A DNA stretch of 64,000 nucleotides from Marsupella aquatica (lineage: Eukaryota > Plantae > Marchantiophyta): the NCBI GenBank assembly GCA_973895155.1, contig OZ316891.1:27317561-27381560 (forward strand). The letters run 5' to 3'. The translations under genes were made by a program, and so were the position numbers. Of this stretch, positions 1-25,524 are shown piece after piece; the stretch's first letter is position 1; each line of letters starts with the position of its first letter. The notes beneath the pieces were generated by a model, which saw nothing but the letters and a program-made list of their open reading frames with translations, was not told where the DNA came from and did not search any database.

Positions 1-319
1 ATAAAAAAGGAGGATAATGTGTTTACCATTGGAGCAAGATCTCCATATTCTTCAATTTGGGACTCTGGGTAAAATTCCATAATTTTGTCACCCAAATATT
101 GATCGGGTTCAAGTTGTTCCAGTGTTTCTTGATTGAGAAGATGACCAATAGAAGGGTTGTGCACAAATCTATGAAGAACACATTTGAATTCAATAACCTC
201 CTTTGATGGACCCTGCAAGGACATTATTGTCACATAAGAACATATAAATCTCTTTCAGTATTTTCGAAAGTTCATATACAATTTGGGGCAATCTCATTTG
301 CGACAACTATCTCAAATCT

Positions 320-874
320 CTACACCTCAAGGAATGAGCCAAGATCTAGTGGTGGAGCTTCTGCTTCCTCTTCCCCCTCCTCCTCCTCCTCATCAACATC
401 ATCATCATTCTCGGCCGCAGTTGTAATGATGCAAATTCTGGTGGTGAGAGTGCTCGTCATACCATCAATTGGTGGTTGTATCTCAAAACTCATCGGCCTT
501 GTACCCTCCTCAATTGCTTCCTCATTCAAGTCCCATGATTCATCCAACGTGACTAGTCGAGTCTGGATGCAGTCTATTTGCTGAGCACTCAACTCTACTG
601 CTGTCACATGTCGCTTTGCCAACAAAGCCCCACACGAAGTAGACCCACTTCCGGCACATAAATCAGCAATCCAATCTCCTTCACTAAAATGTTTGATAAA
701 CCAGTCTACGAGGGCTATCGGCTTTTGATACGGATTCACTACTTCCCCTAATGGTGTTACACATTTCTTGGTAACACAGGGTACCTTGATGATGTTGATT
801 CTTTTCTCATCATGCTCAAAATTATACATTTCCCTGGTCCTGATACCACCTTCATTATAGTATCCGATGGACAT
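320..874 (-). CDS. C-terminal half of a beta-class (N6_N4_Mtase-type) amino-methyltransferase domain plus acidic linker, part of copy A
   Basis: QKP-x-L motif followed by SAM-binding motif I 'IADLCAGSGST' and 'VTAVE'. No DPPY-like catalytic motif seen in this copy. Confidence 0.75.
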   Translation of the reverse strand: MSIGYYNEGGIRTREMYNFEHDEKRINIIKVPCVTKKCVTPLGEVVNPYQKPIALVDWFIKHFSEGDWIADLCAGSGSTSCGALLAKRHVTAVELSAQQIDCIQTRLVTLDESWDLNEEAIEEGTRPMSFEIQPPIDGMTSTLTTRICIITTAAENDDDVDEEEEEGEEEAEAPPLDLGSFLEV

Positions 875-892
875 GAATCAGCCAAAAACGAG

Positions 893-938
893 GGTTGAAT
901 CCCAAATGGGATACGCGTATCCCATTCGGTATTCAACC
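893..938. repeat. Single copy of the type-A palindrome, just inside a splice donor at ~961-965
   Basis: GTTGAATCCCAAATGGGATACGCGTATCCCATTCGGTATTCAAC. Confidence 0.85.
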
Positions 939-1154
939 TCTGGAATGCACGTTTGAACAACTTACCACATCCAAGAGTTTACCGCTCCATCTTTCAAGCT
1001 CCAAAGACTGCGTCTCCTTTGGAAACATTTGTTTACAGGTTGCCCAGTCTGGTTGGCCAAACAATTGTACAAAGAGTTTACTGATCTTCACAAGCTTCTT
1101 GTAACTTTCAGCCTCTTTTGCCATCTGCTCAAGATTAATCATTCTATCCTTGAC

Positions 1155-1907
1155 TCAAAGAAGAAGGGATTCCAAAAACCTGTCCTGCTCAATCCCTTGG
1201 ATCGCTCTCCAAGGCGTCAAAGCGAGCCCCCCTGCTAGCTTGTTCAAAGGTTTCACGACGGGTGTGGCCTTTTGCTTCCCTTTCTTCAGTATCTTCACCG
1301 AGGATTTTTGTTTGTTCTGCCCCTTTATCTCGAATCTATTCCACATGTCAAAGATCTGGTCTTGGAGGTCCCAAACTTTTCCAGATCTAAATAATATCTG
1401 AAAAAGAGGTTCGTGCTTCTTCAGTGTTTTCCCAACCCCTGGAATGAAGCCATCAAGACATACCTCCGACGCGCAGGCCTCTCGAGTCTCTTTTGTTTTT
1501 TGCATGCCTCTAGCAAGGAAGACCTTATGCATTGTTCGGATTTGATCAATATTGTTCATCTTTTTTCGATACTCCTGGTCAATATTGTGTTGAATACTGA
1601 GTTTTTGAACATCGTCCCTTGTAAGCCTTGCATAGACCCATGCTTGAAGTTCATTGAAGATTTCTCGACCATAAGCCTCAAACAGTTCTCTTTTAGCTCG
1701 CGCTCCATGATTACCCCCAATTACCCGATATCTCCAGGTCGATGCCTTGGCCGGGTCCCAATCTGCAACCGACGGACAATCTTCCGGAATAACAAACAAC
1801 ACAAATGGCATAGTGAAATTTGTTGGATTCAACTTCATCAAAGTTTTGATATTCTCCACGTGCAAACGATCAACAGTCCGAACCAACGTGGAGTTCTGAT
1901 CATTCAT
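1155..1907 (-). CDS. ParB/Sulfiredoxin-like domain, part of copy A
   Basis: 'RTVDRLHVENIKTLMK...PFVLFV...YRVIGGNHGARAKREL' matches the ParB/Srx pattern (y-x-I-x-G-x-HR-xx-A), with R replaced by G. Confidence 0.65.
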   Translation of the reverse strand: MNDQNSTLVRTVDRLHVENIKTLMKLNPTNFTMPFVLFVIPEDCPSVADWDPAKASTWRYRVIGGNHGARAKRELFEAYGREIFNELQAWVYARLTRDDVQKLSIQHNIDQEYRKKMNNIDQIRTMHKVFLARGMQKTKETREACASEVCLDGFIPGVGKTLKKHEPLFQILFRSGKVWDLQDQIFDMWNRFEIKGQNKQKSSVKILKKGKQKATPVVKPLNKLAGGLALTPWRAIQGIEQDRFLESLLL

Positions 1908-3024
1908 GTCATCGACCAGGAGGAGGTTTGTTGTTTTCAGAATGACGGTGGTCTTCTAAACTCTTTTTGTCTCCATTAAGTGAGACACTTCTTCCCTTAC
2001 AACCGACGTCTCTTCACGTTGCAGGGCCGTAGTCAGTTCATTTGTCGAATCTTCTTTCCTCTCGACAATCATTGGACCCTTCCCCTTGGATGTGACCGAT
2101 GGCCCACCTTGAGAAGTTGGAGGAATCTCACCTACCAATCTCAAAGGCGAAGGTGGAGCTGTTGACACAATGCTCGCAGGCGCAGACACAACTCTCTTTT
2201 GGATTTCTCGTCGATCCAACTTCGTCTTTGTTTTGGCAGGATCTTCTGAGATAGTTGCACCGAAATGTTCACCTGATTTTCCACCAGAGATATCTTGCGC
2301 TTTCTTCCTCTTTGTTGGCTCGAAGATTGCCTTCTCTTTTGTTGATGTTGTTTGGGAATCCTCCACCGTCCCAGAGGGATCCGTTGGCCTGTGTATCTTC
2401 AAGTTCAACAGAGTTCTCTCTGGGCACTTAAAGTCTTCTCCAACCACTGAACAATACTCAATTTTGGTGAAGTCCCGCACCACCTTCCAAGATGTTAAAG
2501 ACATAACTCAAACACCAGTACAAAAATGAATCCACATCAGGTGCCTCCGCCACAAGCTTGATAATCAAATCATCTGAAAATGTATTCATCGAGACTCGAT
2601 CAAGTTTTTCATAGTTTAGGACCAACACAGAAAACGTCTTGTCAAGACCAACACAAAGAAACATTGGCACCATCTTCACTTTCCTTGTTTTTGAGTCAAC
2701 AATGTCTACCTCGGCCGTGTCAATCACCAACCTTGGTGGCAATGCTCCTTACCCTTCACAACAATCAACCATAAGGCTGGGCCAGCATATGCTCTATGAA
2801 GATCAAGCTCACGAGCATCACGCAAATACCACTTATTCCCGAGGAATTTCTCCTCCGTATAGTGATCCTTTTTCCAGATTTCATCGATGATGGCTTGTCG
2901 GAAAGAGTCTGTGGAACCAGAAGCAATTGACTTGTTCGACATCTTGAAGAAAAGAAAACCACATATAAGAATTTCAAGCCTAATATGATCGAGGTCAAAG
3001 GTAGCAAGACCATAATAGTATGTC

Positions 3025-3513
3025 TGAATGCGAGATGGGATATGCCGTATCCCATCTTGTATTCAACGTTTCACTTTTCGCCTATTTTTTCTGAAAAGCC
3101 TAAGATCACTATGTTGAACACCAAGTGAGATACGCGGTATCCCACTTAGTATCCAATCACTCCTTTCCTGCTCTTTTGTTCAGAGATCTTCAGATTTGGG
3201 TGTTGAATGCCAAACGGGATACCGCGTATCCCACATTGGATTCACCCCCTTTATCGCGTTGAGGATTCAAAAACTCTTGAGATTTTCATGTTGAATGCGA
3301 AGTGGGATACGCGGTATCCCGCTTTGCATTCAACCTCCGTTCTCCATTCGTTTTCAATCTCAAAAGCAAATTTGGCCTAAGTGAATGTGAAGTGGGATAC
3401 GCGGTATCCCACTTCGCATTCAACCTCCGTTCTCCGTTTGTTTTCAATCTCAAAAGCGAATTTGGCCTAAGTGAATGCAAAGTGGGATACTGCGTATCCC
3501 CCTTCGTATTCAT
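3025..3513. repeat. Array of six ~45-bp type-A palindromes at an 88-90 bp period, inside the predicted 5'UTR intron of copy A
   Basis: Copies start near 3025, 3113, 3202, 3290, 3380, 3470. Consensus GTTGAATGCGAAGTGGGATAC-GCG-GTATCCCACTTCGCATTCAAC. Confidence 0.9.
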
Positions 3514-3550
3514 GTTACTAGTTTGATCCAAAAATTGAGGAGACGACATT

Positions 3551-3690
3551 CTCACCTGTAAATGGAACGTGAGCCGAGGGAATACGAATATCTATAGAGA
3601 TTGGGGATTGAGCAAGACATAGAGGTACCACGAGTGAGCAGAAATGAGCGTAATTTTTTGAGGAGGGCACTCTAATTTATACTTTCTCCT
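3551..3690 (-). promoter_or_regulatory. Putative TATA promoter and non-coding first exon of copy A
   Basis: Minus-strand GTATAAATTAG at ~3672-3682; donor AG|GTGAG at ~3552-3557; acceptor TTCTTTTCTTCAAG directly before the ATG at 2942. Confidence 0.55.
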
Positions 3691-3970
3691 CCTGAACAAG
3701 GCTAACTCCTAAGATTAGTTACAGGAAATAGTCGCGGCAAGGTCGAAGCAACTAGTCACGGCAAATAGTCGCAGCAAAGAGTTGGAAATATGGCAAAATT
3801 TATTATAGGTGCAATCCGATATGGGATACCCTTGTACAAATTCAATTGGCAACGAGATAGTAAATGAGTTTGTTACGAAATGCAACGAAAGATAGTAAAT
3901 CAATTCATGAAAAATAGTTTTACAAGGAGCTCAGGAGGAGCAGACCTAAACATGATTGAAAGAATGGGAA

Positions 3971-4525
3971 TCAAGCTAACCCTGAAGTTTCTCCATATAT
4001 TTCCACTAATCTGGCTTGCTGGTCTTTCTCTAGATTGAGCCAGTCCTCTTGAAATCGTCTTAGTTTTGATATCAAAAATAAGCCAAGGAAATCAATTGGG
4101 GGAAGATTTGGAGTTTCCATCCTAAAAACGTTTGCGAGATGAATATTCTGAAGTGTGTCTCCGTGAAGAACGCTAGCAAGCATTTCATTTAATCCCTCAA
4201 ACTGGCTTCGTGCTAGTCGAAGGAGACCCCATACTTGTGTACAAACTACAAGCTTGTTCCATTTCTTTGAAGTGGATCCAAGCCAAACCATTTTTTTTAA
4301 TCGTCCAAGTCTTTCTTCAGCTGAGATCTTGGAGGAATCAAATTCGTCCTCGATGCAAGACACTTTCAAAATGGGCCATATGTAAGTTTCAACAATTTCA
4401 TCAGGAAGTCCATCCAAAAGTAGTCCAAATTTGATTCGGCAACGTTTATGCTCAATTTGTTTCTTCTTCTCTTTCTCAAATAAGGTCACTAACCTCGCAA
4501 AGATTAGGTTCTCAAGGACGGCCAT
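3971..4525 (-). CDS. F-box-like protein (element cargo)
   Basis: 'LLDGLPDEIVETYIWPIL...LGSTSKKWNKLV' fits the F-box LPDE...L-x-x-x-(S/C)KxW pattern. Open 184-aa ORF. Confidence 0.55.
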   Translation of the reverse strand: MAVLENLIFARLVTLFEKEKKKQIEHKRCRIKFGLLLDGLPDEIVETYIWPILKVSCIEDEFDSSKISAEERLGRLKKMVWLGSTSKKWNKLVVCTQVWGLLRLARSQFEGLNEMLASVLHGDTLQNIHLANVFRMETPNLPPIDFLGLFLISKLRRFQEDWLNLEKDQQARLVEIYGETSGLA

Positions 4526-4730
4526 TCCAAATAGTTTGACAAGAAGGAAGGAATACCTGGAGTGATAGAAAATGGAGAAGTTCTGTTTTTGAAGAACCTA
4601 CAAAACAAGGATCAAAATATTTAATTTACTTTATTTATTTGATCAAAAGAAAAACATCATGTCGAAATCTTTGTGAGCCAAGAATACTGAACAAAACTCC
4701 AAATATTTGTGAGCAAAGAATCAAGAAGAT

Positions 4731-5087
4731 TCAATGGGAAGAGTTAACCCAAGGATCTTTGTTCCAAATCCGACAACACAAGTATGCCAATCGATGATAC
4801 TTATTTTGATCATCACGACAATAATTACACAAAGAATCGACATAATGCAGACAACCACTCAAAACAATTCTTGACCAAATTGGAACTCCTTGCTCATTCT
4901 TTTTGCAAAACTCAATTCGGAGCGGATTGAGACTATCTTGAGGATCTACGCCTCCCATCCAAAGCGCTCCTAATCCAACAGGAAGCACTTTGAGTTCAAT
5001 TAATCTCTTATACAATCGACAAGCACGTTTATCTCGGTTTTGAATCTGGACCGTCATTGAACTCACGGTTGAAAATATAAGTCTCAA
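4731..5087 (-). CDS. Small Cys-containing hypothetical protein (element cargo)
   Basis: 118-aa ORF downstream of a TATA/exon/intron module; no family recognised. Confidence 0.35.
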   Translation of the reverse strand: MRLIFSTVSSMTVQIQNRDKRACRLYKRLIELKVLPVGLGALWMGGVDPQDSLNPLRIEFCKKNEQGVPIWSRIVLSGCLHYVDSLCNYCRDDQNKYHRLAYLCCRIWNKDPWVNSSH

Positions 5088-5230
5088 AGAAAGCTAAAGC
5101 TTTAATAGTTCTTTACTCCAAAATGGCGGGCTCGAAGGAAGCAAGAGCTTTTGTCAAAATTGACCAGAACCTAGCCTGCAAAACCATCGCCGATACTTAA
5201 GATATCTTTTGCCATCGCCAAAAAGCTATT

Positions 5231-5937
5231 GCTGAATACCCAAAGGGCTACGCCGTATCCCACTTCGCATTCAAACTTCTCCTTTCGGACCTAACCTGAT
5301 TGATATTCAGAGGTTGAATACCATATGGCATATCAGGTATCCCACTTCGCATTCAACATTGAAATTTCCTTCATTTTTCAACCAAGAGCTTCTTATGCAG
5401 AGGTTGGATGCGAAGTGGGATACGCGGTATCCCACTTCGCATCCAACCTCTTTTTCTCATGTTTCGTCATGCCAAAACTGGATTTTTCAAGATTGAATCC
5501 CAAACCGGATACGCATCCTCGTGATTTCCAAAAAGATGTATTGCTCACCTATTTTTGTAGTCTGACTTGGGGGATATGAATATGCATATAGAGTGTGGAT
5601 TCGTCAGGAGCAAGCAAATGCGGGAGCAAGAAGAAATGAGCCAAAAAAATTGAGTCGGGGCTCTCCTATTTATAGTTTCCCTCGACCATGGTCAGTTTCT
5701 AACCATAGTTTCATCGTAGTCGATTAAAAGTGACCGTTGAAAGGAATCCTCAAGGAATATTCTTGACGGGTAAATCATACTCGCCCCTTTTACTGCGTTT
5801 GTTGGTTTTGTTTTTTTAAACTGCGATGGGATCCAAAATGGGATACGTCGTATCCCTGCTTTGGATTCAAGTCATTTTTTCCCATTTTAATAATCTAAAA
5901 TCTGGGTTATTAGAGGGAATACTAATTCCGTATCCAA
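5231..5937. repeat. Second cluster of type-A palindromes (about 6 copies, some degenerate)
   Basis: Copies near 5231, 5313, 5402 (GGTTGGATGCGAAGTGGGATACGCGGTATCCCACTTCGCATCCAACC, perfect arms), 5493, 5828, and degenerate ~5907. Confidence 0.85.
5544..5682 (-). promoter_or_regulatory. Second TATA and first-exon module, similar to 3551-3690
   Basis: Minus-strand CTATAAATAG at ~5666-5675; donor AG|GTGAG at ~5544-5549; shared blocks with 3551-3690 (gaata-c/t-gaatat, gagcaag, agaaatgagc). Confidence 0.55.
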
Positions 5938-5949: not shown

Positions 5950-6390
5950 TTAGAATGTTTTTCCGCCGCGAGCATTTGAAACGAGAAGTGTGGTCACACT
6001 TCTCGTTTGATCCGTCACTATGTTTTCAGGGTTATCTCCGTGCAAAGAATCCAAATAGTCCAGTTTCCTAAGACCCATGTCGATGACGACCAGTGCCCAA
6101 TGGTTATGTCCCTCATGAATAGGGACCATGACCATCTCTACATCAGTTAAAATGTGCTCCAACTTTGAGGTCCAAGTTTGAACATCGTCATACTTATATC
6201 CACCTCAAGCAAGTTCCGAATAGAACCAAGTATCAAAAATATGAACCTGCGGGAGGTCGGTACCCGCGGATTCTGCTCTCGAAGCAATCAGACCAAAAGA
6301 AGCATTCAGAATTTCAGAAGTTATCCATCGCTCGGGACCTAAACATGCCATCTCGCGACGAGTTATGATGCATCCACTGATTGTCGACAA
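5950..6390 (-). CDS. Ulp1/SENP (peptidase C48) domain fragment, truncated before the catalytic Cys
   Basis: The His motif 'NHWALVVID' and the 'YLDSL' motif are present; the Q-x-N-xx-DCG motif is not found. Confidence 0.8.
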
Positions 6391-7392
6391 AACTAAATCC
6401 TAATCCATGTCAGGGTTGAGGCAAAAGTTTATCGCCACATCATCATTCAGGTTGAGAGAAGTGGGAAAGAGTGAATTGGCACCTGCCTCATTTGCAGGCT
6501 CCACTGCAAGTTCCACGGCAACATTATCGACATGTCCGATGACGGGCTCGACCTTGCATGGACCCTGATTTTCTGCCCAAGTGTGGGGAGGGGATGGATT
6601 GACGATGTTAACGGCCTCTTGAACTCCAGTGACAACCTAAAGGTAATCGGAAGGATCCTCAGACACAACCGGTGCAATATCATTTACAATTGAGTCCACC
6701 TCGCCAAATGACCCCACACGAGGCTCGCGTAGAGATAGAGGTATCCCACCGTCATTGTGTTCTTCCTCCACAAGAGGTCCTTTGGAACTCCCTAAGTGGT
6801 GGATCGGTCTTTGCGCCTCACCAAATTCCCATGGACGGCAAATTTGTTCCCCAACATTAATCATTCCAACACAAGGATCAGAAAATCTGTTATCGTCTTG
6901 ATGGGAAACTGTTCTAGTGACATGATAGTGCCTCCCTTCCTTTGCGCCACTTGCATTCGAGTTTTGCGTTGAGCTGCCCTCCCCTCCTGGAAGTTTCCAT
7001 AAGGATTTCACAAATTGTGCGACACCCTCCAACAACTTGAGATTCTCTGCATAAGCCATGAGGTCCATCACATCCCCCCTTTCCGAACAAAAAGAGAAAC
7101 ATTCCCTTTCCAGAAGAAGGGCATTCTTTCCTTGGAATGGGAACATTTTTATAATTTTTGGTTCCCCCGCGAAAAGCCCCACGGGGAGGGCAAACAGACA
7201 GACCAGAAGGCCAGACCAAGCGACATAAAACAAAGCCGAACACACAGCGCACAGGCACACATCACCAGCGCATATCCCACAGCCCCCCGACCACCAAACA
7301 GTGGAAAAGGGAAAATCAATCACCAACACAAGCCCAAGCCCAACATAAGAGGGCATTCAACAGTCAGATCATCCAGGAAGCCACGGTCCCCC

Positions 7393-10300
7393 TCAAGCAA
7401 AAGAATTGACAGCAATGCTGCCACTGCCTAGCCAAACCCTACGCAGGTCATCCATCCATGCCTTTGCCCGAATCAGGCGGGTGCACTTCCTGCCCGGGGG
7501 GCAGCGCCGACTAACAGCAAAAGCGTTCTCCGCTGCCTCATTCAGAACAAGTCCCAAGTCAAACACCCGTCTCCCCCCCACCTGAAACATGTGAGTGTTC
7601 CTTCCCGTCCAGAGTCGCCACAGAATATGGTGCAAGACGAAGATCCGGGCCACTTGCACAGGCTCCTTCCCGCAGGCCGCCTCTAAAAGAGCCATCAGAC
7701 CTCGTCCCATTGGGAAGCCCAGAATCTGCAACGAATCCTGACAGAGTAGCCAGCAACGGACCGCATGTGTACAGTGGAAGAACACGTGGGGGATCGTCTC
7801 CAGCCATCCTTTGCAAAGCTTGCAATCTCCATTACTCACCTCCATTCTGAGCGCACGTGCCCCAGTGAAAAGGCCCCCTACAATAATCCTCCACACAAAG
7901 GTCTTGCCTCTAATCGGAAGATCAGACCCCCAAAGCTTAGCCCAACACATATTCCAACGCATCTCAGGCCAGGACAGTGACCAGATCCGATTGAGGCGGT
8001 CATGGGATGCAGTCTTAGGCCTTAAGAAATCATACACTCTACAATTCTTGATTCTGAAGTCCTTCAGCGGCTCCGGTCTGTCTGTCCATCTCCACTGCTT
8101 GGCATACAAGTAGTATTCAGATCGGCAATTGTCTGCCCGCCAAAGGCACTCCAAGAACGAACGAGCCATCGTTCGATGCTCATCAGAAAAGCCACGCATA
8201 TTGTGCCATCGTAGCGGTAGGTCCTTCCAACATCCATCCTCCGTCGACCATCCATCACCAATAGACCTCAATCCCAGCCTGCCACAAATCGCAGCAATCT
8301 CTATGAGGGCTTTATTCGGAAGGGAATTGAAGCCCACCATACACCTGAGGGTATCCATGATGCTCCACCGGGAAGGTGGCCCCGTCCGCCCAGGATCGAA
8401 GAATAAGTGGGCTCTCACTAGCTCCCAGCTTCTCCAGAGACCTGTCGTGTAGGGGAGCCCACTAAATGAACGAGGCGTGCACAGTAGCAGCCGGTCCTGG
8501 AAGGAGTATCCATTTTGCCTAATAATTTTGTAGTTCGTCCACCCCATCAATTTCAGGTTGGCTGCCAACATCCTAGACCATTCCGTCTCAGGCGCGTTAA
8601 GTGCCTTAGTGAACCATTGAGAGAGTAATGCATCAGAGTGACTGCGGAAGTCCCGGAATCCCAGCCCCCCTTCCACACGTGGCAAAGCCATCCGATCCCA
8701 GGCCACCAGGGGGACCTTCCGTCCTCCAGTGGCATTATATCCCCATAAAAATTCCCTGCTCAGAGCAATCATCTTCTTCGCCAGGCCTACAGATGCCTTG
8801 CAATACATTACATGGTAGATCGGGATAGCAAGTAGTACCTGTTTGACCAGTAGTGAACGGCCAGTAAAAGAAAGAAGTTTGTTGGACCAAACAGAAAGTC
8901 TGGCACAAATCTTATCCAAACAGAATTTGTGCGGTTGTTCCGTGCTCAAACTCTCCCCAAAAGGTGCCCCCAGGTATTTCTGTATCTCGCCTCTTCGGCT
9001 GATAAGGCAGCCTGTGTTGTTCAGCCACTCTGGGATCCTTTCCAATGCCAATGGGATCACAACAGATTTCTTCAGATTCAGTCGCGCCCCACTAGCCATC
9101 TCATAGCATTCTAGAGCAGTGGTTGCTTCCTCAAAGGCACGCTCTGTGGCCGGGATAAACATCCCAACATCATCCGCAAACAGTCTATAGCAGATAGTGA
9201 ATCCAGGGGTGATCTGCAGTCCACAAAGTCGGCCCTCCGCCATCTCAATATCGAGAAAGTCCATAAGAGGTTGCGTGGAGATGACAAACAACAATGGTGA
9301 CAGTGGACAGCCCTGTCTTACCCCTCGTTTAAGCTCAAATGTGTTTGATAGTAATCCGTTCACCAAGGCCCTGGAAGATGCCTGTGCTAGCAGGGCCCTG
9401 ACCAGCATAGTGAAGCGTCCGCTGATGCCCAGTAGGTGCATGCATTCCCATAAGTAGTCATGTGAAACACGGTCAAAGGCCTTCTCGAAATCCAGTTTTA
9501 GGAACAATGCCTCTCTCCTCTTGTTGTGCACCCAGTCACATGTAAGCCAGGCTAAGGAAATATTTTCAAGAATGTGTCTTCCAGGTATAAATCCAGTCTG
9601 TTGCGGGCTAATAATCATGTGTAGAATCGGTTTGAGTCGTATAACGAGGATCTTGGCAATGAGCTTGTATATAGTATTTAACATTGTCAAAGGGCGCCAG
9701 TCCCTTAAAAACCGTTTATCAGGTTTCTTGGGTATGAACTTCACAATTCCTTCACAGATTCCAACGTCCAAAGCCCCCGTAAGCCAGAACTCCTGTATCA
9801 TATCCACCAGATCTTGCCCGAGAAACTCCTAGCATGCTCTGTAGACCTCAACTGTCATGCCATCCGGTCCCGGCGTTTTGTCACAAGGCAGGAGCCACAG
9901 CACCTCCTTCACCTCCTGGTATGACGGGAGTCTCTCCATCCTCAAATTCTCCGCTCCAGAGAGTGCAAACCTCGTGTTGCCAAGCAATCTGTCTCTGGCC
10001 ACACGAACCTCTTCCAACTCCGCTTCCAATCGCGGATCAGGCGAGTATAATGTTTGGCAGAACCTTTCTACCTCCTTCAGGATTTCTCCAGGGTCAGCTA
10101 CTGTACTCCCGTCCTCCCTATTCAGGGAAGGCATGGACTCACGAGATCGCTTAGCCCTCACTGTAGCAAAGAAAAACATTGTTGACTCGTCTCCTTCACT
10201 TAACCACTTAATTCTGGCTAGTCGTCGTCCTCTGTGTGCTTCCTCCAACTCTGAAGCATGTAGAGTATCTTCCGCGTCCATGAACTCTGCAATGTCTCCC

Positions 10301-11313
10301 TCTGAATGGTGTTCTATAATGGCCATCTTAAGAACTCGCAACTGAGCTCGCTGAGTTGCCATCTCCATCTCAGTTGTCCTTGGTTGGGCTTGAATTTCCT
10401 TCAATGTTTGACGCATTTTCCAGCTGCCCTTAGCAAAGCGCAGCCGCGGGTCCACAAAATCTCCTCATCCCACCCTCCAAGCAGCCTCCAGCCGCAGAAT
10501 GTCCTCCCTTCTCCGCAGAAACGCCGGGTTGGCCATGAAGAGACGCACTTTGCCTCTCTCCACCGTCTCTGTCAGTCCAGAGAGCTGCACATTCAACATA
10601 ACAGGATCATGATCCGAAAGGGCTGAGCCCCCGTCATGCAGGAGTTCCACCTCACAAAGCCATTCTCCCCTTTCACTAACATAAATCCTGTCGAGTCGAG
10701 ACTGTGACATCTCTCCATTCCGATTCCTTCTCCACGTGAAGCGCGGGCCAGCAGCTCCTCCCCTAATGTCCCACGCGTCTGTCAAATTAAATCTCATCTT
10801 CAAGAATCTCCAAAACTCAGCCTCTCTACCGCGGATCAGCGGCGATGTACCAGTCGAGTCCGTTCTGCGTTCTGTCATATTGAAGTCACCACACAGCACC
10901 CAGTCATTGTGTGGTAGCATCACCTTTAGATCATTCCATAGCAGAGCTCTTAGTCTAGCTGAATTGGGAGCATATATACACGCAACTCCGAAGGTCACCG
11001 CTCCCTTCTCGATCATAGCCCATACCGCCCTTCCCATATCCAGTGTTCCCGAGCCCACCACCCTTAGCTCAGGGTGTACCAGTAGTGCCGTTCCTCCCTT
11101 TCCCTCCTCCGGCTCAGAAGAAAAGTGCTGATATGATGGGAGAATAGCCCGCAGAGCCATATCAAGTCTAAATTGATCAGCTTTCACTTCTTGAAGGGCC
11201 AGAATCCCCAGCGGTACCTTCAGCGATCTTACCCAATTCTTAACAATATGCTTACGGTTAGGCTCACAAAGTCCACAGACGTTCCAGGATGCCACCCTGA
11301 GCCTTCCGTCCAT
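7393..11313 (-). pseudogene. LINE ORF2 (APE endonuclease, reverse transcriptase, zf-RVT) with two in-frame stops
   Basis: SWNVCGL, LQEVK, GDFN, SRLDRIY, SDHDPV; KLDFEKAFD, RQGCPLSPLLF, FADD; CKLC...HVFFHC. Stops at 10465-10467 and 9829-9831 in the same frame. Confidence 0.95.
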
Positions 11314-11367
11314 CCTCCTACTATGCCAAAATTATATCCTGGCACAGCCACCCCCCATCCTTGCGTC

Positions 11368-13533
11368 TCATAGTCTATTCCGTCCCCCGGGAGACATCCC
11401 CGTCACATCTCGACCCATAGGTCCACTCAAATATCCATTAATAGAGCCAGCAGGAGAGACACGCATGGGGGATGCTAAATGCGCCACTCCACCGCCAAAA
11501 GGAGCATTCCCCTGGACCCTCGCATCACAATCGCTCCCTCTAGGAATGGTGAGCAGCAGTCGCTTGTGCATTGTAATCCCGTCCGCACTTCCTGCATTAG
11601 ACATGGCACCACGTGAGAATCTAATTGATCTTTGCTTCTTAGCCTCACCTTTGGCCTTCTCAGTCCTTTCAGAGGGCGGTGTGCGAAGTTCTTGCTTGCG
11701 GGCTCTAGCTTTGAATTTGCTATGTGAAATATAAGCTTCATATTTAGACATCTCCGCATCAGATTCTTTGTGAAAGGAGAAGGTCTCATCATTTCCATCA
11801 CGCGAATTGGGAGTAGTAAGGGCTTCAATTCCTTGTTCCACTGAATTTCTCTGAGTAGTCCGTCGCCCAATTGACGGGACAACGACAGCCAGTAGTGGAA
11901 TCCTGGCAGCCTCTGTGTCTTGTGAGTCCTCCATGCAGCCAGCCCGCCCAGGCGTCAGGAGACAATTAGCACTTCTCTCCCTGGTTCCCGAAGAGAAAGC
12001 CGCCACCCGCAAATCTGGGTTCTCCCGCAGCAGCGGCCCCGAGTCCCGCCCTGCCAACTCCCCAGGAACCGGACTAACAATTAGCAACTCCACCTGAGCA
12101 ATATCCTCCTCCACTGAAAAGGGTACCTCCAGCACAGGAGGCACCATGGCTCCCCAAAAAATAGCACGTGCTTCAGCATTTTCTTTAGCCCTCAACACCT
12201 CCTCCTGATCAGCCTCAGAGTGTCTCTCGTCATCTTTCTCGTTCGGCGGGTCCGCTCCCGTCCGTAGAGCACCGGCAGTCTCCAAGATTACTTTACATTC
12301 ACGGGCCAGGTGACCTCTTTGGTTGCATCGAAAGCAGTGATAGGGGATATTTTTAAACGTCACCGGTTGCCAGATAATAATGTCATCACGAATTCGAATC
12401 TTCACACTGGCAGGGACTTCCCTGTCCGTGTCCCAAAGGATGCAAGCCCGATCGTGGGGATACAAACTGAATTTGTTTCCCTGAATGTAGTACAGCAGAG
12501 TCCCTAGAGAGCATGCAATCTTTCTTCTGCAGCCCTCTAGAGCAAGATCCCTAAACGGTATCTCAATCCACACTGGGAGCTTCATGAAGTTCTCACATTT
12601 AACATCAAAGGATGGATCCCATGGGAACGTGTATATAAATCGTCTCTCCATAAACCATGGTGCGTAGTTGAGTGCCAGATCCCTGTGATTAGGATCCTCA
12701 AACACTATCATGTAAAAGTTCTTCCCTACGAATTTAACCTGAAGTACCGGCCATCCCTCCTGGTTTGTCATCACTTCGTCTACCCATGCTCTAAAATCAT
12801 TGAGGAGCGGCGTTCTTCCCGTGAAGTAGCATATGAGAGCGCAATTATATAGTTGTCTCACATTACGAGCTGCTTCCGGTAGGTTCCATTCCACTTCTGC
12901 AAAGAGTCTCTTGTCAAGATCACCTTTGGACCTGATCGCAATCTCGCGCAGGATCTTGATACACTCTTCAGATTCATCATCCTCCACGGGCGCGTCCTGC
13001 ATCTCCACATTTTCTTGTGGCACCTCACTCCCCACCATTGCATCCTGGTTAACCTCATTCGCCCCTCTTCCAATTGTTCCACGCCCCCAATGCAGAGCTT
13101 CGCCTTCCTTCTCCCCTGCTCCATCCCCCTCCTGCAGGTTCTGAGGCAATTCCATTCCACTCACCGACTGCACCTTAGGTCCAGGTCCATTCATCGGATG
13201 CTCATTCCCATTCAAGTAATACAACTGAGATCTGGCCGCAGTTGTCTCCCCCAAATTCGGGTCGTTCCTCCCAGAGCGCGCATCTTGCGCAGAGAATCCA
13301 ATAGCAGGTCCACTGACCATAACACCCCGCGCAGGTGATCGCCCCACAGCTTCACCGGGTATCCCCCCCACCTCAAGCCTTGCAGCAGGCTCCCCTTGTG
13401 TCCTCCGATCTACTCGTCCACCAGCTAAGCGTCCCCCCCTCGCGCTCCTGCGGCTCGAGGGTCCATAATAGTCTATCCCCTGTTCCTCCATGATACAAGT
13501 GGCCTTCCTTGACTCTACAGCCTTTGCATCCAA
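11368..13533 (-). CDS. LINE ORF1 (DUF4283-like plus CCHC zinc knuckle)
   Basis: 'ALNYAPWF...LPVWIEI' and 'CFRCNQRGHLAREC'; open 721 aa. Confidence 0.9.
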   Translation of the reverse strand: MDAKAVESRKATCIMEEQGIDYYGPSSRRSARGGRLAGGRVDRRTQGEPAARLEVGGIPGEAVGRSPARGVMVSGPAIGFSAQDARSGRNDPNLGETTAARSQLYYLNGNEHPMNGPGPKVQSVSGMELPQNLQEGDGAGEKEGEALHWGRGTIGRGANEVNQDAMVGSEVPQENVEMQDAPVEDDESEECIKILREIAIRSKGDLDKRLFAEVEWNLPEAARNVRQLYNCALICYFTGRTPLLNDFRAWVDEVMTNQEGWPVLQVKFVGKNFYMIVFEDPNHRDLALNYAPWFMERRFIYTFPWDPSFDVKCENFMKLPVWIEIPFRDLALEGCRRKIACSLGTLLYYIQGNKFSLYPHDRACILWDTDREVPASVKIRIRDDIIIWQPVTFKNIPYHCFRCNQRGHLARECKVILETAGALRTGADPPNEKDDERHSEADQEEVLRAKENAEARAIFWGAMVPPVLEVPFSVEEDIAQVELLIVSPVPGELAGRDSGPLLRENPDLRVAAFSSGTRERSANCLLTPGRAGCMEDSQDTEAARIPLLAVVVPSIGRRTTQRNSVEQGIEALTTPNSRDGNDETFSFHKESDAEMSKYEAYISHSKFKARARKQELRTPPSERTEKAKGEAKKQRSIRFSRGAMSNAGSADGITMHKRLLLTIPRGSDCDARVQGNAPFGGGVAHLASPMRVSPAGSINGYLSGPMGRDVTGMSPGGRNRL

Positions 13534-14577
13534 TTAGGAAATAGTCAAGGTCTTCTTGTACTCACCAGAAGATTCGACGATGGCTCGAAGTCCCGTTGCC
13601 ACTCCACACCTCCTCGTCTCCAAGGCGCACCAAGGTCAGTCCTTCTTCTCACCGCTGTGTATGCCCGCCCATCCTTCTATTCGCAGGTTACGACGTTGAA
13701 ACAGCTCTCAGCTCGTCCCTATTCTCTCTCCTCTCGCTGCCAAACCTTCATACAGAATCGTCTCACCGCTCCATCCCAGGTTATGAGAAACGGAGAGTGG
13801 CATCAAAAAGTCTCCACGCCGTCAATGAATAAGCCACGATTGTCGAGGACGTCCCACTGTCCCGTGCTCCTTCGATCCTCTTCAGCTAAAAGGCCTTCCC
13901 TCACACCTCCGTAAGCGATTACCTCCCATCAAGTCCCCGCAGCTCCTCCCCTCTGGAAGAGACCATTCTTGGTCACATCAACCAGCCAGCACAGCCACAT
14001 ACGGAAAATTGATCCTCCCAATCCCATCTACCATCAGTCCGCTTACGCTCCGGTCTCCTCAAAGCCCATCCTGGCCCTTTCACTCATCACTTTTTCGCCA
14101 CTCTCGGTTATAGCCGAGCACAGAATCGGATCCACCCAACACTCACCGATTTATCCACCAATGTGTAACAGTTAAGACTCTCCTTCGCCATTGCTTGTAT
14201 CTGAGGAAACATTCTCCATCGAGCAAACTGCCCCCCGTACCCACCATGCCCGTGTCTGTGTACACACGGTGCGTCTCCCTTCTCCTACACCCTAAACCGA
14301 CCTAAAACCTTCTAAAATCTCCCGAGCCGTCCAGAGCATGGAGATGTCGAGAGTGAGCAAGAGTGGGTTCATTCGCATGCGGTGTCTCCTGCGTATCAAA
14401 ACCTTCCCCCTCGGGAAGCAACGCCCACACCCGATCCAGGTGTGGATGATTCCAAGCTCTTGAGAGAGAGCACAAGTCAGCGCCCGTAAGCAACCAGTTC
14501 TCAAGGTCACCAGCTCCTCGGTGGATCTCGAAGAAGGGCATTCTTTAAAACTTGCCCACCAATAAAGAAGTCCAACA

Positions 14578-14864
14578 CTCGGGGGGTTGACTATCAAAAA
14601 TCTTAGGAACCACGTGCGATCCAAAATAGGTATTTTTCATAGAAATTAGCTAAATTTTTAAAAAGTGTAGGAAGCAAAAGAAGGTATTATAGACCAATAT
14701 TTATAGAATATTCTCTAATATATACCTTTTATAAAGTAAAATAGGTCATTAATATTGAAAATATAGAATGTTTTTGGAATATTCCCATTATAAAATAGGT
14801 GTGTTTATATTAGGCTAGGATTGCACGTGGTACCCCAAAATATACACTAAGTTAACCCTCCGAG
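14578..14864. mobile_element. MITE copy 1 (287 bp, AT-rich interior)
   Basis: TIR CTCGGGGGGTTGACTA / TAAGTTAACCCTCCGAG; inner IR GGAACCACGTGCGATCC / GGATTGCACGTGGTACC; perfect 8-bp TSD GTCCAACA (14570-14577, 14865-14872). Confidence 0.92.
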
Positions 14865-16546
14865 GTCCAACACAATTTCCTCCTTCTCGGAAAATCGAAG
14901 AATGATTGCCTTGATAATTTTGTTGGGCTTAATGTTTGATGTAAATGTTCTGCCACCGGGGGTCCGGAAAGGAATGAGTCTATACAAGCGATCTCCAAGA
15001 GCGGATTTTTGCTTTGCTGCAACCTCTTCCTTGGAAAGGCCAGCATAATCTTCTTTGGCTGGTCTTGCTAGTTCAAGCTGATCAGCCAAGAAATGACCTT
15101 GAAACCCTCTGAAATGTTTTTCCCAATCTGGTTCTTGTTCCTGGGAGACTCCAAGAAAAACAATGGACTCAATAATACCCGACATGAAATGCGATGAGTG
15201 GACTTCTTTCGCACTCTTCCAATAGCTTCCATACTCCAAATGAGCATTATAACTAGAAGGTAGATCAGTGAAAGCTTCAATAATTCTGGCCAACAAGAGA
15301 CCTGGGTGCACGAAAAACACGATAGTCACCAAGTCGTTGGCGAGGACATTCACGACAGTCTTCAAGAAATTCAGCAGCTCCGATTGTGTCCAAGTATTTT
15401 GAATGAGTGTGTCATATCGACAATAGCAAGTGACGCATTAATCCTCTCCCTACAACTCGTCAAATCAAAAGGAGGCTCCGCGGAAGCAAGAAGATTCCCA
15501 GAGTAAAATATTCAATATGGATCCATTCTCTTGCGGACAGTTCCCCCAAATTTCTTTTGGTAAATATTCCGTAACCTATTCTTCAAAGGTTCTGGCATAT
15601 CGGATTTTGCAGAGACCTTGACTAAACTCTTGAAATAAGCATTGTCAACCATTGAGCAACATCGATCCAATTCTTCATTTGTGAAATTAAACTCGCGGAC
15701 CACATCCGACCAAACGGCCCCAACATTGAAAACACTTTCATAGGTCTCGTAGTAGAACCGCAAGATTGCACCTTTCAGCTTTTTAGTATACTTGGCTTTC
15801 ATGGCAAGATCGGACATTGAAGGTATATCTGTCCTTGCATGTCTTCTCTTCATCAAGAGAACCTCTCCCGATTGAACTTTATTCAAGATAGAGGTAATGT
15901 CAGATTCTTGCGCCCCCTCAAATACCCTGGATGTCGTCCCAGTAAGTTGTTTTGCTTCCCTCTTCTTCCCAGTCATCTCTCCATTGTTGTCAGGTAAACT
16001 ACCGGACAACCAACTATTGCAGACCGACATCCACAACTTATAGAGGCTCTCCAATGCGAAAAGGATCCAGTTCTATCCGCTGATGCTACTCACTTTCAGT
16101 GTGACTTTGGCCAACCCTTCGCAATCCTGAAACCCAACAACAAATGGTAAGAACAACACAGTAAACCAAACCTTTGGAGAAGGTATCTTAGAGCCAAGCC
16201 TTGGATTCTACACGAGGCTCGTGTGGACCACAAAAGAAATTATGGTGTCAACAAGAACGGACCTGGAATTCTTGGGATTTTTGCCTAGATGGCACTGGCC
16301 ACACTGGTCGATTCATTTCTGGATATTGCATTCTCGCATGCCTGACCTGGTCGATGAATGGTGATGAGAAACGATGTGCTTCAGCTTGCAAGTTGTTTGC
16401 ATGTGAAATCTCAACCAACACCTTAACAGGTGTCGACCCCTTGAGAATTCTTGCACGACGGAATTTGAGGAGGTTGGCAGTTTCAACCAAAGATGGCTGT
16501 GTCCGAGAACTCTGAATGATTTTCCTCGCGGCCATAGTTGAGTGTT

Positions 16547-16861
16547 CCTGGGAAAATATTTTTTATAATAAAAGGTGAGACCGCGAAAACCCCACGGCCG
16601 GGGGGAAGCAAACAGCCCCATAGATACATCAGAACAACTCCCTCAGGGAGGCCAGCGGCAAAAGCAAAGGCCAGAATCACAATAAAAAAAGAAAAAAGGG
16701 GGGACTAAACCTAGTGGCCCAAAATGTGAGTGACCCATACATCATGTCAACTTCTAGAGCCCTAGAGCCGGTAAAGCGAGGTATCCCATTCGACCTCTTC
16801 CAATAGCTATCACTCCTAGACCAGCAACGCAGCCACAGAGGTGACTCTGCCAGTACTCCTA
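16547..16861 (-). mobile_element. 5'-truncated LINE (3' end only, 315 bp)
   Basis: 16-bp TSD GCCATAGTTGAGTGTT (16531-16546, 16862-16877); carries the same 3' motif CCGCGAAAA(G)CCCCACGG as the LINE end at ~7167. Confidence 0.85.
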
Positions 16862-18986
16862 GCCATAGTTGAGTGTTGACCACTTATTGCAAAATATTGA
16901 TACTCGGATAATTGTTTAGAATCAAAATCTCTGACGGAAAGATCGATAAGACTGTAAACACCATTAATCATCTTGTAAGGCACCAAATCTACAGGCAAAG
17001 GTTCCTGACCGGCATTTAAAATCATCAACTGAACAAGATGGTTGACATGGTCTTCGTTGAGTAACCTCTCATTCATTTTTGCCGGCGAAGGATAGATATT
17101 CATCAAAGGAATGAGGAAAACTTTTGACAGCCCAAAAGAATACCAGCATCGGTTTTGCTACAAAGTCTTTTCTGCCCTCTCAAGTCTGGCTTGATCAACG
17201 ATTACTTTAGAACTCGAGTCAGCATTCATCTCTCCCATGTCATCCATGACATCCATCTCAATCATCTCCACTTTCTTACGTTGTTTCTTCGGGATTGGGA
17301 CACCGGTTTCCGATGCCTCTTCCATTCCCCCAGTCTCTCTTTTGCGGCCCCTTCCACGCTTGGACTTCTCCGATCTTGTCACCCCATGGTCTGTGGATAC
17401 GTTTTGCACTTGAGTATTGACCTTTTGAGATTTTGAGGGCACCTTCTGTTTCATGACAGCTGAAGGTGTTGCAGCGGAAGGTGTTGCAGCGGAAGGTGTT
17501 GCAGCGGAAGCCTTACGAGACAAATCCTTCTTAACGACACCTTTTGATACGGGTTTTGCTATCTCTTCCACAACTGCCTGCTTCTTTTGAGCCTTCTTCT
17601 TGACAGCCTTCTTCTGTTCTGGCATTTCGCCGCTTTAATCTTCTTCTGTGGTTGTTTGGACTTTGCGATCTGTGGCCCTTTCACCTCATTAGAGCTAGTG
17701 TGGATTTTTGCCTGAGGGACATTAGCTTTCCCAACCTTCTCTGGAAGAGCGATCTTTGAAGACAATCTCTTCTTCTTGGAAGGAGGAGTGTCTTCTTCCA
17801 TTCACTTTCTTTTCTTTTTCTTCTGCACCTCCATCTTAGTCTCAGAGTCCTTTTCCTCTTCAGCCTCTGAGCCTCCCACTTCCGCGAGTTCTTCATCCAC
17901 GGCTTGGATCTTATCTTCAAAGATCTCCTCTATTCCAACCAACTCAGGACTCAAAGAGTCACTGGGAACAATGCTTGGTTCATCTGATGTACCCTGTGAA
18001 CTTGATGATCTTGAATCTAAACTCGACGACGATCCAGGTTCCTATACAACTTTGCTTGCTTTGAGATTTGGGCCACCACCATGACATCCGTGCCTTTTCT
18101 GATTCAAATTGAAGGCCTTCACTACAGGATGGATTGCAACCCAACGTTTAATCCTTTCCTTGTCAACTAGATCTGGGAAAGCAATTTTTGGAACGATCTC
18201 GATCTCCTGCCGGAGTTCATCTTCCGGTAAAGATAGAGACATGACGTAAACAACATGCCTGGTTGCAAAAAGGTGAGATTGATAATCTTTGAAGAACAAA
18301 AAACTAACCCTTCCCAGCCCTGAAACAATATCCTCAGCAGTGAGAACATTATCTGGATCCATGAAACAATGAGTGGATGGATCAAAAAATCCTAAGGACG
18401 TTATGTTCATTGTCGCATCATTTGGCTCAAGACAATGTGCACAACAATATTGTTCAACGGGAAGAGAGAACTCTCTATATCCACAATTAACGCGGTCCTC
18501 CACCGTCACTGTCAGAAAGACCTTTCGCTTCTGGTGCTCTGGTGCTTTTGAAATCCTACAATCGGCAAGCACACCCAAGTACTTCCAAAACCTCTTGGGC
18601 TTGGCAATAACGATCCCCCGCAACCAACACCTCCAAGGATCACCCTCCATACGCATTTCAAAAGACCATGAATTGACGATTGGATTTTGGTGGCTAATAG
18701 TGCTTCGCTTAGCGGTTGCGGTAGGCACGGGTGGCTAAAACAAACATACGGGAATCCTAGGAAAGAACCAATATGGAAGATTTAGAATAGAGTCCAAGAT
18801 GTCAAAACAAATGCCGAGATTTTATTATTCACAAAAATGTACAATTCGTCCAGAAAACAACTCATTCGACCAAAATGGACTTTGCCCGCTCGACTACCAT
18901 CTTCTAAAGTTGGGGCACATATTGATCTGGGTGCCTCGATCTCCAACTAAACAACTCATCTAGTACTAAGTCTTGACAGATGAGTT

Positions 18987-19840
18987 CTAGGGAAATGTCT
19001 CCTAGGCTGCTTCCTTCTTCAGCCTCTTGATAGTCTGGAGGTGGCCTTCCTCCTGGGCCGTCATGATAATCAGCTTCTTTGTGAGCATCTATATCTGACT
19101 CTCACGGAGCTCATCAAGCTTGGTGGCCTGCTTCATCACTAGGCACAACTCTTGACATGTCTGAAGATGATTCCGCTGAGCTCGAAAATATCTTCCAGGA
19201 TAATCCTTTCTAATCGAACTAATCTCTTCATCTTTCTCCTTCATAGTTTCTCGCAGGGTCTCAAGTTCCTTGAGGACATCCTCAGTCATTTGGGACTCCT
19301 TCTCATATTTATCTTTGATCGATTTCAAATGTTTCAAGGCATTGTCGATTTGGCCTTCAAGGTAACAAATGAGCCTCAGGTGAGTAACATGCTCTACACA
19401 AGAGTCACGTGAAAGCAAATGGAAATGATATTTACTCCAACGGATTTTCGTACGGAAGCACTGATGGGATGAGGATCGTCCGGGATCTACACGAGAGTCG
19501 CGTGAAGATAGAGATAAAAAACGTCTAAAACTGATTCGGAGAAAAAAGATTGAGGGTTACCTTCAAGCATGATCTGCCCATTCATAGCATAGTACTGGAG
19601 ATCATCTACACGAGTCTTGTGTAGAAAACTTAGTACTGGGTATCGCATAACACAAATAAATCTAATAGGATAATGTCTACACGAGACTCATGTGGAAGGA
19701 ACCGCTGAAATTTGAAATAAAAACAAACAACGAAAAGAAAAACTAAAGATCTACACGACTGTCGTGTGTAAATACCTTCAACTCTGGTGAAAGCTGCGAC
19801 CGACATCTCCCGGACCTCCGATTCTGATAGATTTGCCATG
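18987..19840 (-). pseudogene. Multi-exon coiled-coil hypothetical gene
   Basis: TATA-like GGTATATATTTC at ~19978-19989; first exon 'MANLSESEVREMSVAAFTRVE'; heptad-like 'LKSIKDKYEKESQMTEDVLKELETLRETMKEKDEEI'. Exon structure is uncertain. Confidence 0.4.
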
Positions 19841-20413
19841 AAACCTCTTTGCACATGTGAAACAATTTGCAAAATATGGACGGAATTGAGCACAACTCAG
19901 AGGGAGAGACGAATGAGCGAAAGGGCGGAGAATGAGAGGGCAAAGATGAAGGAATGAGGGAATGAGCGAATCTCCTTGAAATATATACCTGACACAAGGA
20001 ATGGGCGAGCGTAAAAATGGGCCAGCGTGAAGCGTGAAGACATCATTAAGAGCGCCGCCAAAAATATCGACGAATCTTACCAGACGACAATCGTGTAGAG
20101 CTATCAGCCTATCACATTCGAGTAGATGTGCTTATTCTTTTGTCATTATCTGTTGTCATTGTCTGATATGATTAATTGCGCCACCAAAATATCGGAAAAT
20201 TGGACCACACAATGATCTAGCAGAGCGGCCACCCTATCATTTTTGTCCATTATATTCGGGATTTCTATCTGGGAATGGTATTTATTGATTAGTCGTCTTG
20301 ATTCTCTAGTCATTCTCTCGCCAGACATGAATGGTTCCGAGGACAGGTTTTGGCATGGGTTTGAGTCCAAGGACTGCTTTTGGGCGCCCAATCGGTACGT
20401 CCCTTCTGGGATT

Positions 20414-20475
20414 CCATTCCTGTGACTGTCTCATTCCTGTGACTGTCTCATTCCTGTGACTGTCTCATTCCTGTT
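20414..20475. repeat. 17-bp tandem repeat (CATTCCTGTGACTGTCT), about 3.5 copies
   Basis: Read directly from the sequence. Confidence 0.9.
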
Positions 20476-21181
20476 ACTCTTGGAGAATGTTTTTTTAGGA
20501 CAATTATCTGTACCTCATTTCTTTCAAAAGTTCTACTAAATAGGGGTACTGTAATAGCATATTTAGGATTTCAAAGAGGAATTAGACCTCATTTCTTCCA
20601 TAACTGCCCTAATTTTAGAGTTAGACTTCATTTCTTCTTTAGTCAATTGAGGACGATTGAGGGTCCTAACATGGGTTATGTCTTGGTCTTGAGGAATTGG
20701 ACTTCAATTGTAACACAATTTATCAGTTGGGTGGTTCCTTAATGTGATATTACATGGATTGGGGATTTGTACCCTGTTGGAATTTGTACACTGATGGACC
20801 TTTTACCCTATTGGAATTTGTACCTTGTTGGACTTTCCTTCTCTCTTAGAGTGAAGCATCAAATAATAGTGGGTCCTTTCCTTACTTCTTGTGGGATTTT
20901 TGTCATAAATGCATATGATTGTGATAATCCGGTTACTTTTGGGAGATGTTTAGACCTAAGCTGATGCTCTACACGAGGCTCGCCTAGCCATCGAACCTCC
21001 TTGTGTTTCCTTCCACTACCTGTATGTATTAATAATTCTACACAAGCCTCGTGTTGAGGGTTATCGATGTGCATGTTTTATTATGGTTAACTAGGTCTTT
21101 TCCTGCCGGTGAATAATTCCCGTCTTGTGTCCACACGAGAGTCGTGTTGAAGTTACTGTTAACCTCGAATCGGTCAAGAAT

Positions 21182-24100: not shown

Positions 24101-24471
24101 AGGATACGTTTGTTATTCTTCGTCCAACAGATAAATTTGAACAAATAGTTCCCCTTCGATTCTGGCTAGGAAGAGCCATGGATCGTGTTGTGTGGGTTCC
24201 AGATGATGCTCATGCTGGGGAGTTTGAGGCGGAATGGTGGAGACCTGTCCATCAAAAATTGTTTGTCCCAGACTCTGAACGATATCGGGATTGTTTCAAT
24301 TCTAAACAGTCCTGGGAAGTTGATCCAAATTACCAAAGTCCTACAATCCGACACGACTGGCTCCTCGCAACGTCTACAATCAATGGCTGGAATTCAAAGG
24401 CAAAGGGTAAAGTGAAAGTTCCAGGTCATGTTCTTGAAAGCGTGAATGCATACATTTCCGAGAACTTCTGA
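21182..24471 (+). pseudogene. Sola-like DD(E/D) DNA transposase, degraded
   Basis: CCxxxCC + 'IRDEFYGLS...QQTYIL'; 'KCDLC'; 'SVIHDKMDQAK'; 'HLQLDNSGKDNKN' (alternate frame ~23215-23253); 'SFLMVGHTHEDVDAFFS'. Frameshifts and TGA stops. The superfamily assignment is from recalled motifs. Confidence 0.7.
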
Positions 24472-25352: not shown

Positions 25353-25524
25353 GATTTGAAGCCATTTGGGAGAGTCTTAAGTTTTTGAAGCATTTTGAGG
25401 AAAACGCGAGTCTCGCGTAGATATTTGACTCCAGAAAATTTAGATTGTGTTCGCTCACTTTTGTTTCTGCTTTAAGCTGGTAAAGGAGATTTCCTTATCT
25501 GAATGCCCATGTCTCTATGGGCAT

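Follow-up and report, generated by a model that had tools for sequence, protein, structure and literature searches.

Palindrome arrays beside broken ParB-fold/methyltransferase genes in a putative transposon of Marsupella aquatica

To our knowledge, few systems, VANC and TnpA included, offer a detailed picture of a sequence-specific regulator encoded by a transposon together with its mapped target motifs. VANDAL-like elements carry a Ulp1-type protease gene, and outside such elements Noc, ParB and KorB bind palindromic sites, the parS site being 16 bp long. We analysed a 64,000-nucleotide stretch of the Marsupella aquatica (Marchantiophyta) assembly GCA_973895155.1 (contig OZ316891.1, positions 27,317,561 to 27,381,560, forward strand), hereafter the window, in which a putative transposon carries two broken ParB-fold/methyltransferase genes (A and B), a DUF7869 transposase-like gene and two families of palindromes that are candidate protein-binding sites.

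According to PMC5735166, VANC21 binds a motif that tandem repeats have multiplied across introns and upstream regions of VANDAL21. The Marsupella element resembles this system in having a transposon-borne accessory protein, short motifs tandem-amplified in introns and upstream non-coding DNA, and apparently different motifs for different paralogs, but the VANC21 motif is a 9-bp site in one orientation as against the 19–45-bp palindromes here, and PMC5735166 makes no mention of palindromes. The accessory protein (ParB-fold/PF01555) and the DUF7869 transposase-like gene also set it apart from VANDAL elements, which are Mutator-type and encode VANC-family proteins. By analogy, the element would work like VANDAL/VANC without being a member of that group, as protein, transposase and motif type all differ.

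The ParB, Noc, KorB and BisD systems (with parS, NBS, OB and bisS sites) share with the locus an N-terminal ParB/Srx fold followed by a helical domain, and candidate sites of palindromic form close to the promoters of a mobile element. Here, in contrast, the gene is eukaryotic and intron-containing, lacks the GxxR arginine, is fused to an amino-methyltransferase and is accompanied by tandem-amplified sites. A bacterial-type amino-methyltransferase in a eukaryote is also described, in the accessible portions of the respective papers, for MpDN4MT1 (10.1101/2021.02.12.428880), for the rotifer N4CMT (PMC8885841), which recognises a motif in a tandem repeat, and for DAM domains that ride in retrotransposons (10.64898/2026.05.21.726589). 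These differ from the present family in their catalytic motif (SPPY/TSPPY or NPPY rather than DxPY/H), whereas here the enzyme is fused to a ParB fold and its carrier is a putative DNA transposon; ParB goes unmentioned in the Marchantia and DAM papers (10.1101/2021.02.12.428880, 10.64898/2026.05.21.726589).

A further parallel comes from the protein language model of the ESM Atlas, in which residues 90–480 of the gene A homologue P0021 (ParB plus helical domain) have fungal DUF3723 clusters as neighbours (0.94, 157–168 shared features), along with one viral ParB_N cluster (0.91). We treat this as a lead, hinting that the DUF3723 protein of Starships may be ParB-like. In the part of the Starship study available (10.1101/2021.12.13.472469), DUF3723 is, like gene A, an accessory gene of a large mobile element, but Starships use a tyrosine recombinase, and the likeness is one of language-model neighbourhood rather than alignment. 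Our literature search returned no top-ranked paper naming both DUF3723 and ParB, and no account of a plant transposon in which palindrome arrays accompany a ParB-methyltransferase gene, in literature judged mostly by title and start of abstract, with subscription journals and repeat databases largely outside it.

Two palindrome families and their layout

The A-type palindrome comprises a 21-nt arm, a gap of 2–3 nt and the reverse arm, 44–45 bp in full by arm-gap-arm scan. Together with a position weight matrix (PWM), the scan gave ten full copies, one degenerate copy and two half-sites spanning 894–5871, close to the figure of about 13 in an earlier note made from the sequence alone. At up to three mismatches the arm had 11 matches against a shuffle mean of 0.00, and the 23 hits of the arm PWM in the 64-kb window all lay inside 894–5846.

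Six full copies occupy 3023–3514 (starts 3023, 3113, 3202, 3290, 3380 and 3470) in the predicted 5'-untranslated-region (5'-UTR) intron of gene A (2943–3555), with start-to-start spacings of 90, 89, 88, 90 and 90 bp, as the earlier note had described for this intron. A lone half-site (3809–3829, plus strand) lies ~130 bp upstream of the gene A TATA box (3681–3675, minus strand). In a second predicted intron (5176–5548) there is an array as claimed, but it consists of three full palindromes and a left half-site rather than four copies (5231–5512; starts 5231, 5313 and 5403, half-site 5492; spacings 82 and 90, then 89 bp to the half-site), and a degenerate palindrome follows at 5826–5871. We assign this array and the 5826 site to a predicted separate gene X rather than to gene A. 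Gene X (3974–5093, end approximate, minus strand) is F-box-like, lies between the two A-type arrays and has its own TATA box at 5674, ~150 bp downstream of the degenerate site, with 5176–5548 as its predicted first intron; its top ESM Atlas hits are F-box proteins (score 0.93, 122 shared features, a lead only), and it had no Pfam hit. A site near 5905–5937 failed the arm PWM.

The remaining full copy (894–937, N2, no strand assigned; scan and PWM) was reported as lying in an internal intron of gene A, which holds with a qualification. This intron, like the two above, is predicted from GT..AG splice and TATA contexts; it opens at GT 965, and homology to the gene A protein ends at 951–960 and resumes at 868. 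We compared the window with contigs from four public runs (X1–X4) covering two organisms and two studies, of which X1 and X2 may include the source sample. At 872, contigs of X2 and X4 depart from the window into sequence that can be read as the coding stretch missing here, so the 894 site sits in an intron remnant beside a deletion in the window's gene A (junction 872/873).

The earlier observation that palindrome and period are kept while most spacers differ was borne out. The A-type palindromes have a mean pairwise identity of 0.76 (45 pairs), whereas 27 of 28 spacer pairs are 0.42–0.61 identical (shuffled 0.44–0.50), the remaining pair (3290/3380) reaching 0.93; spacers are therefore far less conserved than arms, contrary to what a plain minisatellite would give. 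Conservation within the arm is position-specific (20 arms), at 96% over 13 core positions and 69% over six middle positions, these classes having been picked after the column counts were seen, and the conserved core positions of the palindrome are symmetric.

A second palindrome, the B-type (CTACACGAG-N-CTCGTGTAG, 19 bp), is different from the A-type motif and occurs at nine sites with up to three mismatches (0.02 expected) and at 14 sites with a PWM score >15, all within 6714–25420, three weaker PWM hits (9.8–12.6) having been set aside. Single sites lie within the 3' part of gene B (6714) and within gene B proper (16208). Six more span 19394–20098, five of them (spacing 93, 119, 71 and 74) in a predicted first intron (19355–19775) and one upstream, ~95 bp before a TATA-like box at 19987. 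At its 5' end the transposase-like gene has three sites (20969–21149; spacing 69 and 93), the last of them at its very start, and three more (24487, 24556 and 25402, spanning 24487–25420) lie downstream of it, the first two just past its end. Within-cluster spacings are 69–119 bp overall, and one layout recurs at three predicted promoters, the first intron holding an array and a single site standing 95–150 bp ahead of the TATA box.

Full sites of the two types never intermix, A lying in 894–5871 and B in 6714–25420; for five A clusters and seven B clusters, the probability of perfect separation under random labels is 2/792. Short A-core matches within the B region (6741 and 16781) occur at about the chance rate for a 7-mer. 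The second, paralog-associated family adds support to the reading of the palindromes as binding sites, and we consider it probable that they are selected binding sites.

ParB-fold genes and candidate binders

Gene A (323–2942, minus strand, ATG at 2942) would encode a ParB/Srx-fold domain, a helical domain and the C-terminal part of an N6/N4 amino-methyltransferase, and the window's copy is broken by stops, frameshifts and an internal deletion of the catalytic region. Its middle part gave a confident structure model (predicted local distance difference test, pLDDT, 89), for which all eight Foldseek matches at E≤0.001 were Noc or ParB (E 5.6e-5), with whole-model Noc matches over both domains at template-modelling (TM) scores of 0.44–0.50. 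VIA comparison of the model returned PadC (Z 10.8, root-mean-square deviation (rmsd) 2.5, 97 aligned) and pNOB8 ParB (Z 8.5, rmsd 3.7, 181 aligned). The ParB label given to this gene in the earlier note accordingly holds at the level of fold, and on sequence and modelling grounds gene A reads as a broken ParB-fold plus amino-methyltransferase gene. A frame downstream of it (3–254, minus strand) looks by eye like the beginning of a Ulp1 domain, in which case A would share the architecture of gene B; BLASTP, PDB and Pfam searches gave this frame no support.

The C-terminal part of gene A matches PF01555 (E 1.3e-5), and SAM-binding (S-adenosylmethionine) motif I is present. Motif IV is deleted in the window's copy but occurs in the homologues P0006, P0021, P0027 and P0028 (DFPY, DLPY, DAPY and DIPH); since homologues keep this DxPY/H catalytic motif, a capacity for methylating adenine or N4-cytosine would be expected of intact copies. 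HMMER retrieved 127 relatives, and PF01555 was present in 5 of 33 relatives scanned. Nineteen relatives that were looked up include five from Chara, three from Riccia, two from Adiantum and one each from Ginkgo and Haliotis. Word-indexed protein searches found no longer relative of the ParB part of A or of the methyltransferase part of gene B, which is weak evidence; a PDB search with the sequence profile gave no match, and among viral contigs no relative of gene A or of P0128, a homologue of the transposase-like protein, was found. P0021 matched phages through its methyltransferase part alone (301 records), with 24–29% identity and no match covering 80% of the query among the 12 matches listed.

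Gene B (14547–17634, minus strand) is a broken, distant ParB-fold/methyltransferase paralog into which a miniature inverted-repeat transposable element (MITE) has inserted at 14578–14858. It was compared with gene A by tblastn and with the family profile, which gave a ParB piece at E 4e-4 and four weak pieces (E 0.13–0.57) in collinear order. Its 3' part (5980–7129, minus strand) carries a truncated Ulp1/Peptidase_C48 domain (profile positions 1–132 of 217; E 1.2e-12 and 5.5e-4) and is separated from the rest by an L1-type long interspersed nuclear element (LINE; 7130–14529, minus strand) flanked by a 17-bp target duplication (7113–7129/14530–14546). With the LINE taken out, the Ulp1-like segment is continuous with gene B, and public runs X3 and X4 contain the LINE-free, empty-site joint (7126 to 14548). 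Where the Ulp1 homology of gene B stops and the A module begins, a near-perfect hairpin with 16-bp arms (5977–6010) may mark a fusion junction.

The transposase-like gene (21152–24471, plus strand) matches DUF7869 (PF25273, E 4.9e-19), is frameshifted and is collinear with the 1101-amino-acid P0128. DUF7869 had no mention in the searched literature, and no solved structure matched the transposase-like protein; DUF7869-like motifs go by the label of Sola-type DDE DNA transposons, a class to which it may belong. Because element termini were looked for and not identified, we infer transposon status from gene content. An ACGT/GACGT-rich region at 25740–27240, with inverted copies and a 145-amino-acid open reading frame (ORF; 26129–26563), may be a small element of its own or a subterminal region.

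Taken together, fold, site arrangement and the VANC analogy suggest that the element's own ParB-fold proteins are, on balance, the binders of the palindromes, as VANC-like cognate sites. A homodimer of the ParB-fold/amino-methyltransferase protein would bind the two-fold palindromic site, with the 45-bp motif as the predicted target of protein A and the 19-bp motif as that of protein B. Tandem duplication would have multiplied the sites within promoters and first introns of the element, a multi-copy DNA element that is likely transposable, and arrays beside transcription starts could let the bound protein regulate or chemically mark element genes. The purpose would most likely be that cognate copies stay expressed in the face of host silencing, the role that VANC plays for VANDAL.

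Several observations weigh against this assignment. The CTP-binding (cytidine triphosphate) GxxR arginine of ParB is absent, the motif reading GNHG in A and its close homologues and GQHS in B. The helical domain folded alone had no Foldseek match at E≤0.001 and a best VIA Z of 3.7 (KorB DNA-binding domain Z 3.5, rmsd 4.1, 80 aligned), and HTH_ParB was touched by one of 56 family members, weakly (E 0.032). The 45-bp site is long for one ParB-type dimer, both paralogs in the window are broken, and the fusion of two modules (plain co-descent) would equally give the A/B separation. In the public runs the array bins are 2–5x deeper than the element body, and a flank that frequently adjoins the consensus palindrome is absent from the window, so further palindrome contexts exist. 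Finally, B sites also flank the transposase-like gene, itself a possible binder.

This last point leads to the alternative that fares best, namely that something else binds the sites, be it a host transcription factor, the product of a further element gene or the DUF7869 transposase-like protein, and that the ParB-fold methyltransferases are passengers. It gains from the B sites directly before and after the transposase-like gene, from a DNA-binding domain in protein A that is itself putative, and from transposases and TnpA proteins being sequence-specific activators of their own elements, as the available part of one report has it (10.64898/2026.08.24.746577). However, the sites are internal, at promoters and in introns, and there are two motif types for one transposase-like gene in 1–28000, each type accompanying one ParB paralog; we judge this alternative unlikely.

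Tandem duplication, hairpins and clamps

Spacers of the A-type arrays retain common ancestry: the seven non-redundant spacers have a summed alignment score of -94, as against -231 ± 19 in 500 shuffles. Because of this shared ancestry, the arrays read as old tandem duplications of an ~89-bp unit in which the palindromic half has been kept. Among the contig joints listed, 3423 to 5475, 3504 to 5475, 3422 to 3369 and 5459 to 893 each give a unit of 88–90 bp, and joints from X3 and X4 place other spacers between palindromes with the period unchanged; one such joint points to another palindrome, 88 bp away from the 894 site and within the stretch that is deleted here. A CRISPR-like array was also considered and rejected, as the spacers share ancestry and have no other long matches in the window, and no cas domain was found in the ORFs scanned.

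A tandem-repeat origin is equally what a neutral, decayed minisatellite would have, its palindromic half being kept by mutational processes, for instance gene conversion or repair of one arm templated on the other, and having no role in binding. The near-identical spacer pair fits such a history, as do the four of ten A-type palindromes that carry the same deviation in both arms. The covariation analysis proposed in the earlier note speaks against it, since the two arms of one palindrome resemble each other no more closely than they do arms from other copies: own A-type arms differ at 4.2 positions and permuted arms at 4.6 (p=0.16), with 2.23 and 2.25 for the B-type (p=0.55). Arm conservation is moreover uneven, isolated sites recur just upstream of TATA boxes, and a second, unrelated motif has the same layout, all of which makes neutral decay improbable.

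The same absence of arm-to-arm covariation bears on intronic RNA hairpins (as a small-RNA source or in splicing control) and on DNA cruciforms. Every A-type palindrome is foldable on the transcribed strand, at predicted energies of -13 to -38 kcal/mol, and most lie in predicted introns. Nevertheless, counting G-U as a pair still leaves 27 of the 210 stem pairs broken on that strand, and transcripts would not include the sites that precede TATA boxes. All 11 Rfam matches fall far below the gathering score, and a microRNA reading was also rejected. The missing covariation and the broken stem pairs point to recognition of double-stranded sequence as the better fit, and leave structured RNA or DNA as a very unlikely explanation.

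Least probable of all, to the point of being remote, is a true parS/ParB-like nucleotide-gated sliding clamp that spreads for long-range control or segregates an excised form: the top whole-model matches (Noc and pNOB8 ParB) place both domains within the ParB fold, and BisD and KorB act in this way on bacterial mobile elements in the accessible parts of PMC12409273 and PMC11790492, but both A and B lack the GxxR arginine, mutation of a conserved arginine of BisD abolished nucleotide binding (PMC12409273, accessible part), and no ParA-like gene was present among the 38 window ORFs scanned, the element running off the left window end.

Other copies, neighbouring elements and wider meaning

Public-run contigs, hundreds to thousands of variants per run, cover 1–25199. 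Median depth of the A module is 0.8–1.7x that of gene B and the transposase-like gene, where contig depth is not copy number and no single contig spans the element; this supports the A module and the gene B/transposase module forming one multi-copy family. Array bins reach 1.4–5.1x the depth of the element body, as against 16–44x for the MITE at 14578–14858 as an internal control, and loose ends at the 5403 palindrome have a median of 16–50 nt, as against 136–255 nt, with unrelated flanks, at the MITE termini. These contrasts argue against dispersal of the palindrome into unique DNA in the manner of the MITE, with the arrays filling part of their bins. A core-motif scan of viral contigs gave 0 matches, and none of the 16 loci from a metagenome scan passed the full-palindrome filter or carried the gene A ParB part. 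One of these loci (L010, 9993–10030, the same locus as L012) has a single palindrome that is partly A-like including its flanks; it lies in an unrelated ORF and was taken as chance.

The window contains several further elements. The MITE is a high-copy family of ~280 bp with GGGGTT..AACCC ends, and besides the copy in gene B (14578–14858) it occurs at 37767–38046 and 49340–49495. A Gypsy-type retrotransposon (28722–35532, minus strand) carries a C5 cytosine methyltransferase ORF (PF00145, E 1.7e-11, 32118–32843) before its reverse transcriptase and integrase, and matches the streptophyte Gypsy-DNMT3 elements mentioned in the available part of 10.64898/2026.05.21.726589. A second L1-type LINE (40464–46420, minus strand) is ~66% identical to the one at 7130–14529, and a TrkH/HKT cation transporter gene lies at 51900–55035 (minus strand).

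A fuller version of the cognate-site proposal, which we offer tentatively and regard as doubtful in its entirety, is that a family of plant DNA transposons took over a bacterial ParB-methyltransferase and acquired operator arrays of parS type to match, each paralog binding its own palindrome and depositing non-host N6-methyladenine (6mA) or N4-methylcytosine (4mC) on element promoters. This would amount to self-recognition and anti-silencing independent of VANC, widespread from Chara to ferns and possibly paralleled by the DUF3723 protein of Starships. With two paralogs and two candidate motifs side by side, cross-binding could be tested directly, the control being built in. If the proposal is true, a bacterial partition-type DNA-binding module and an amino-methyltransferase would run a self-recognition circuit in a plant transposon. 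It would also hint at how 4mC/6mA writers came into streptophyte genomes and supply a hypothesis for DUF3723, an uncharacterised gene of Starships.

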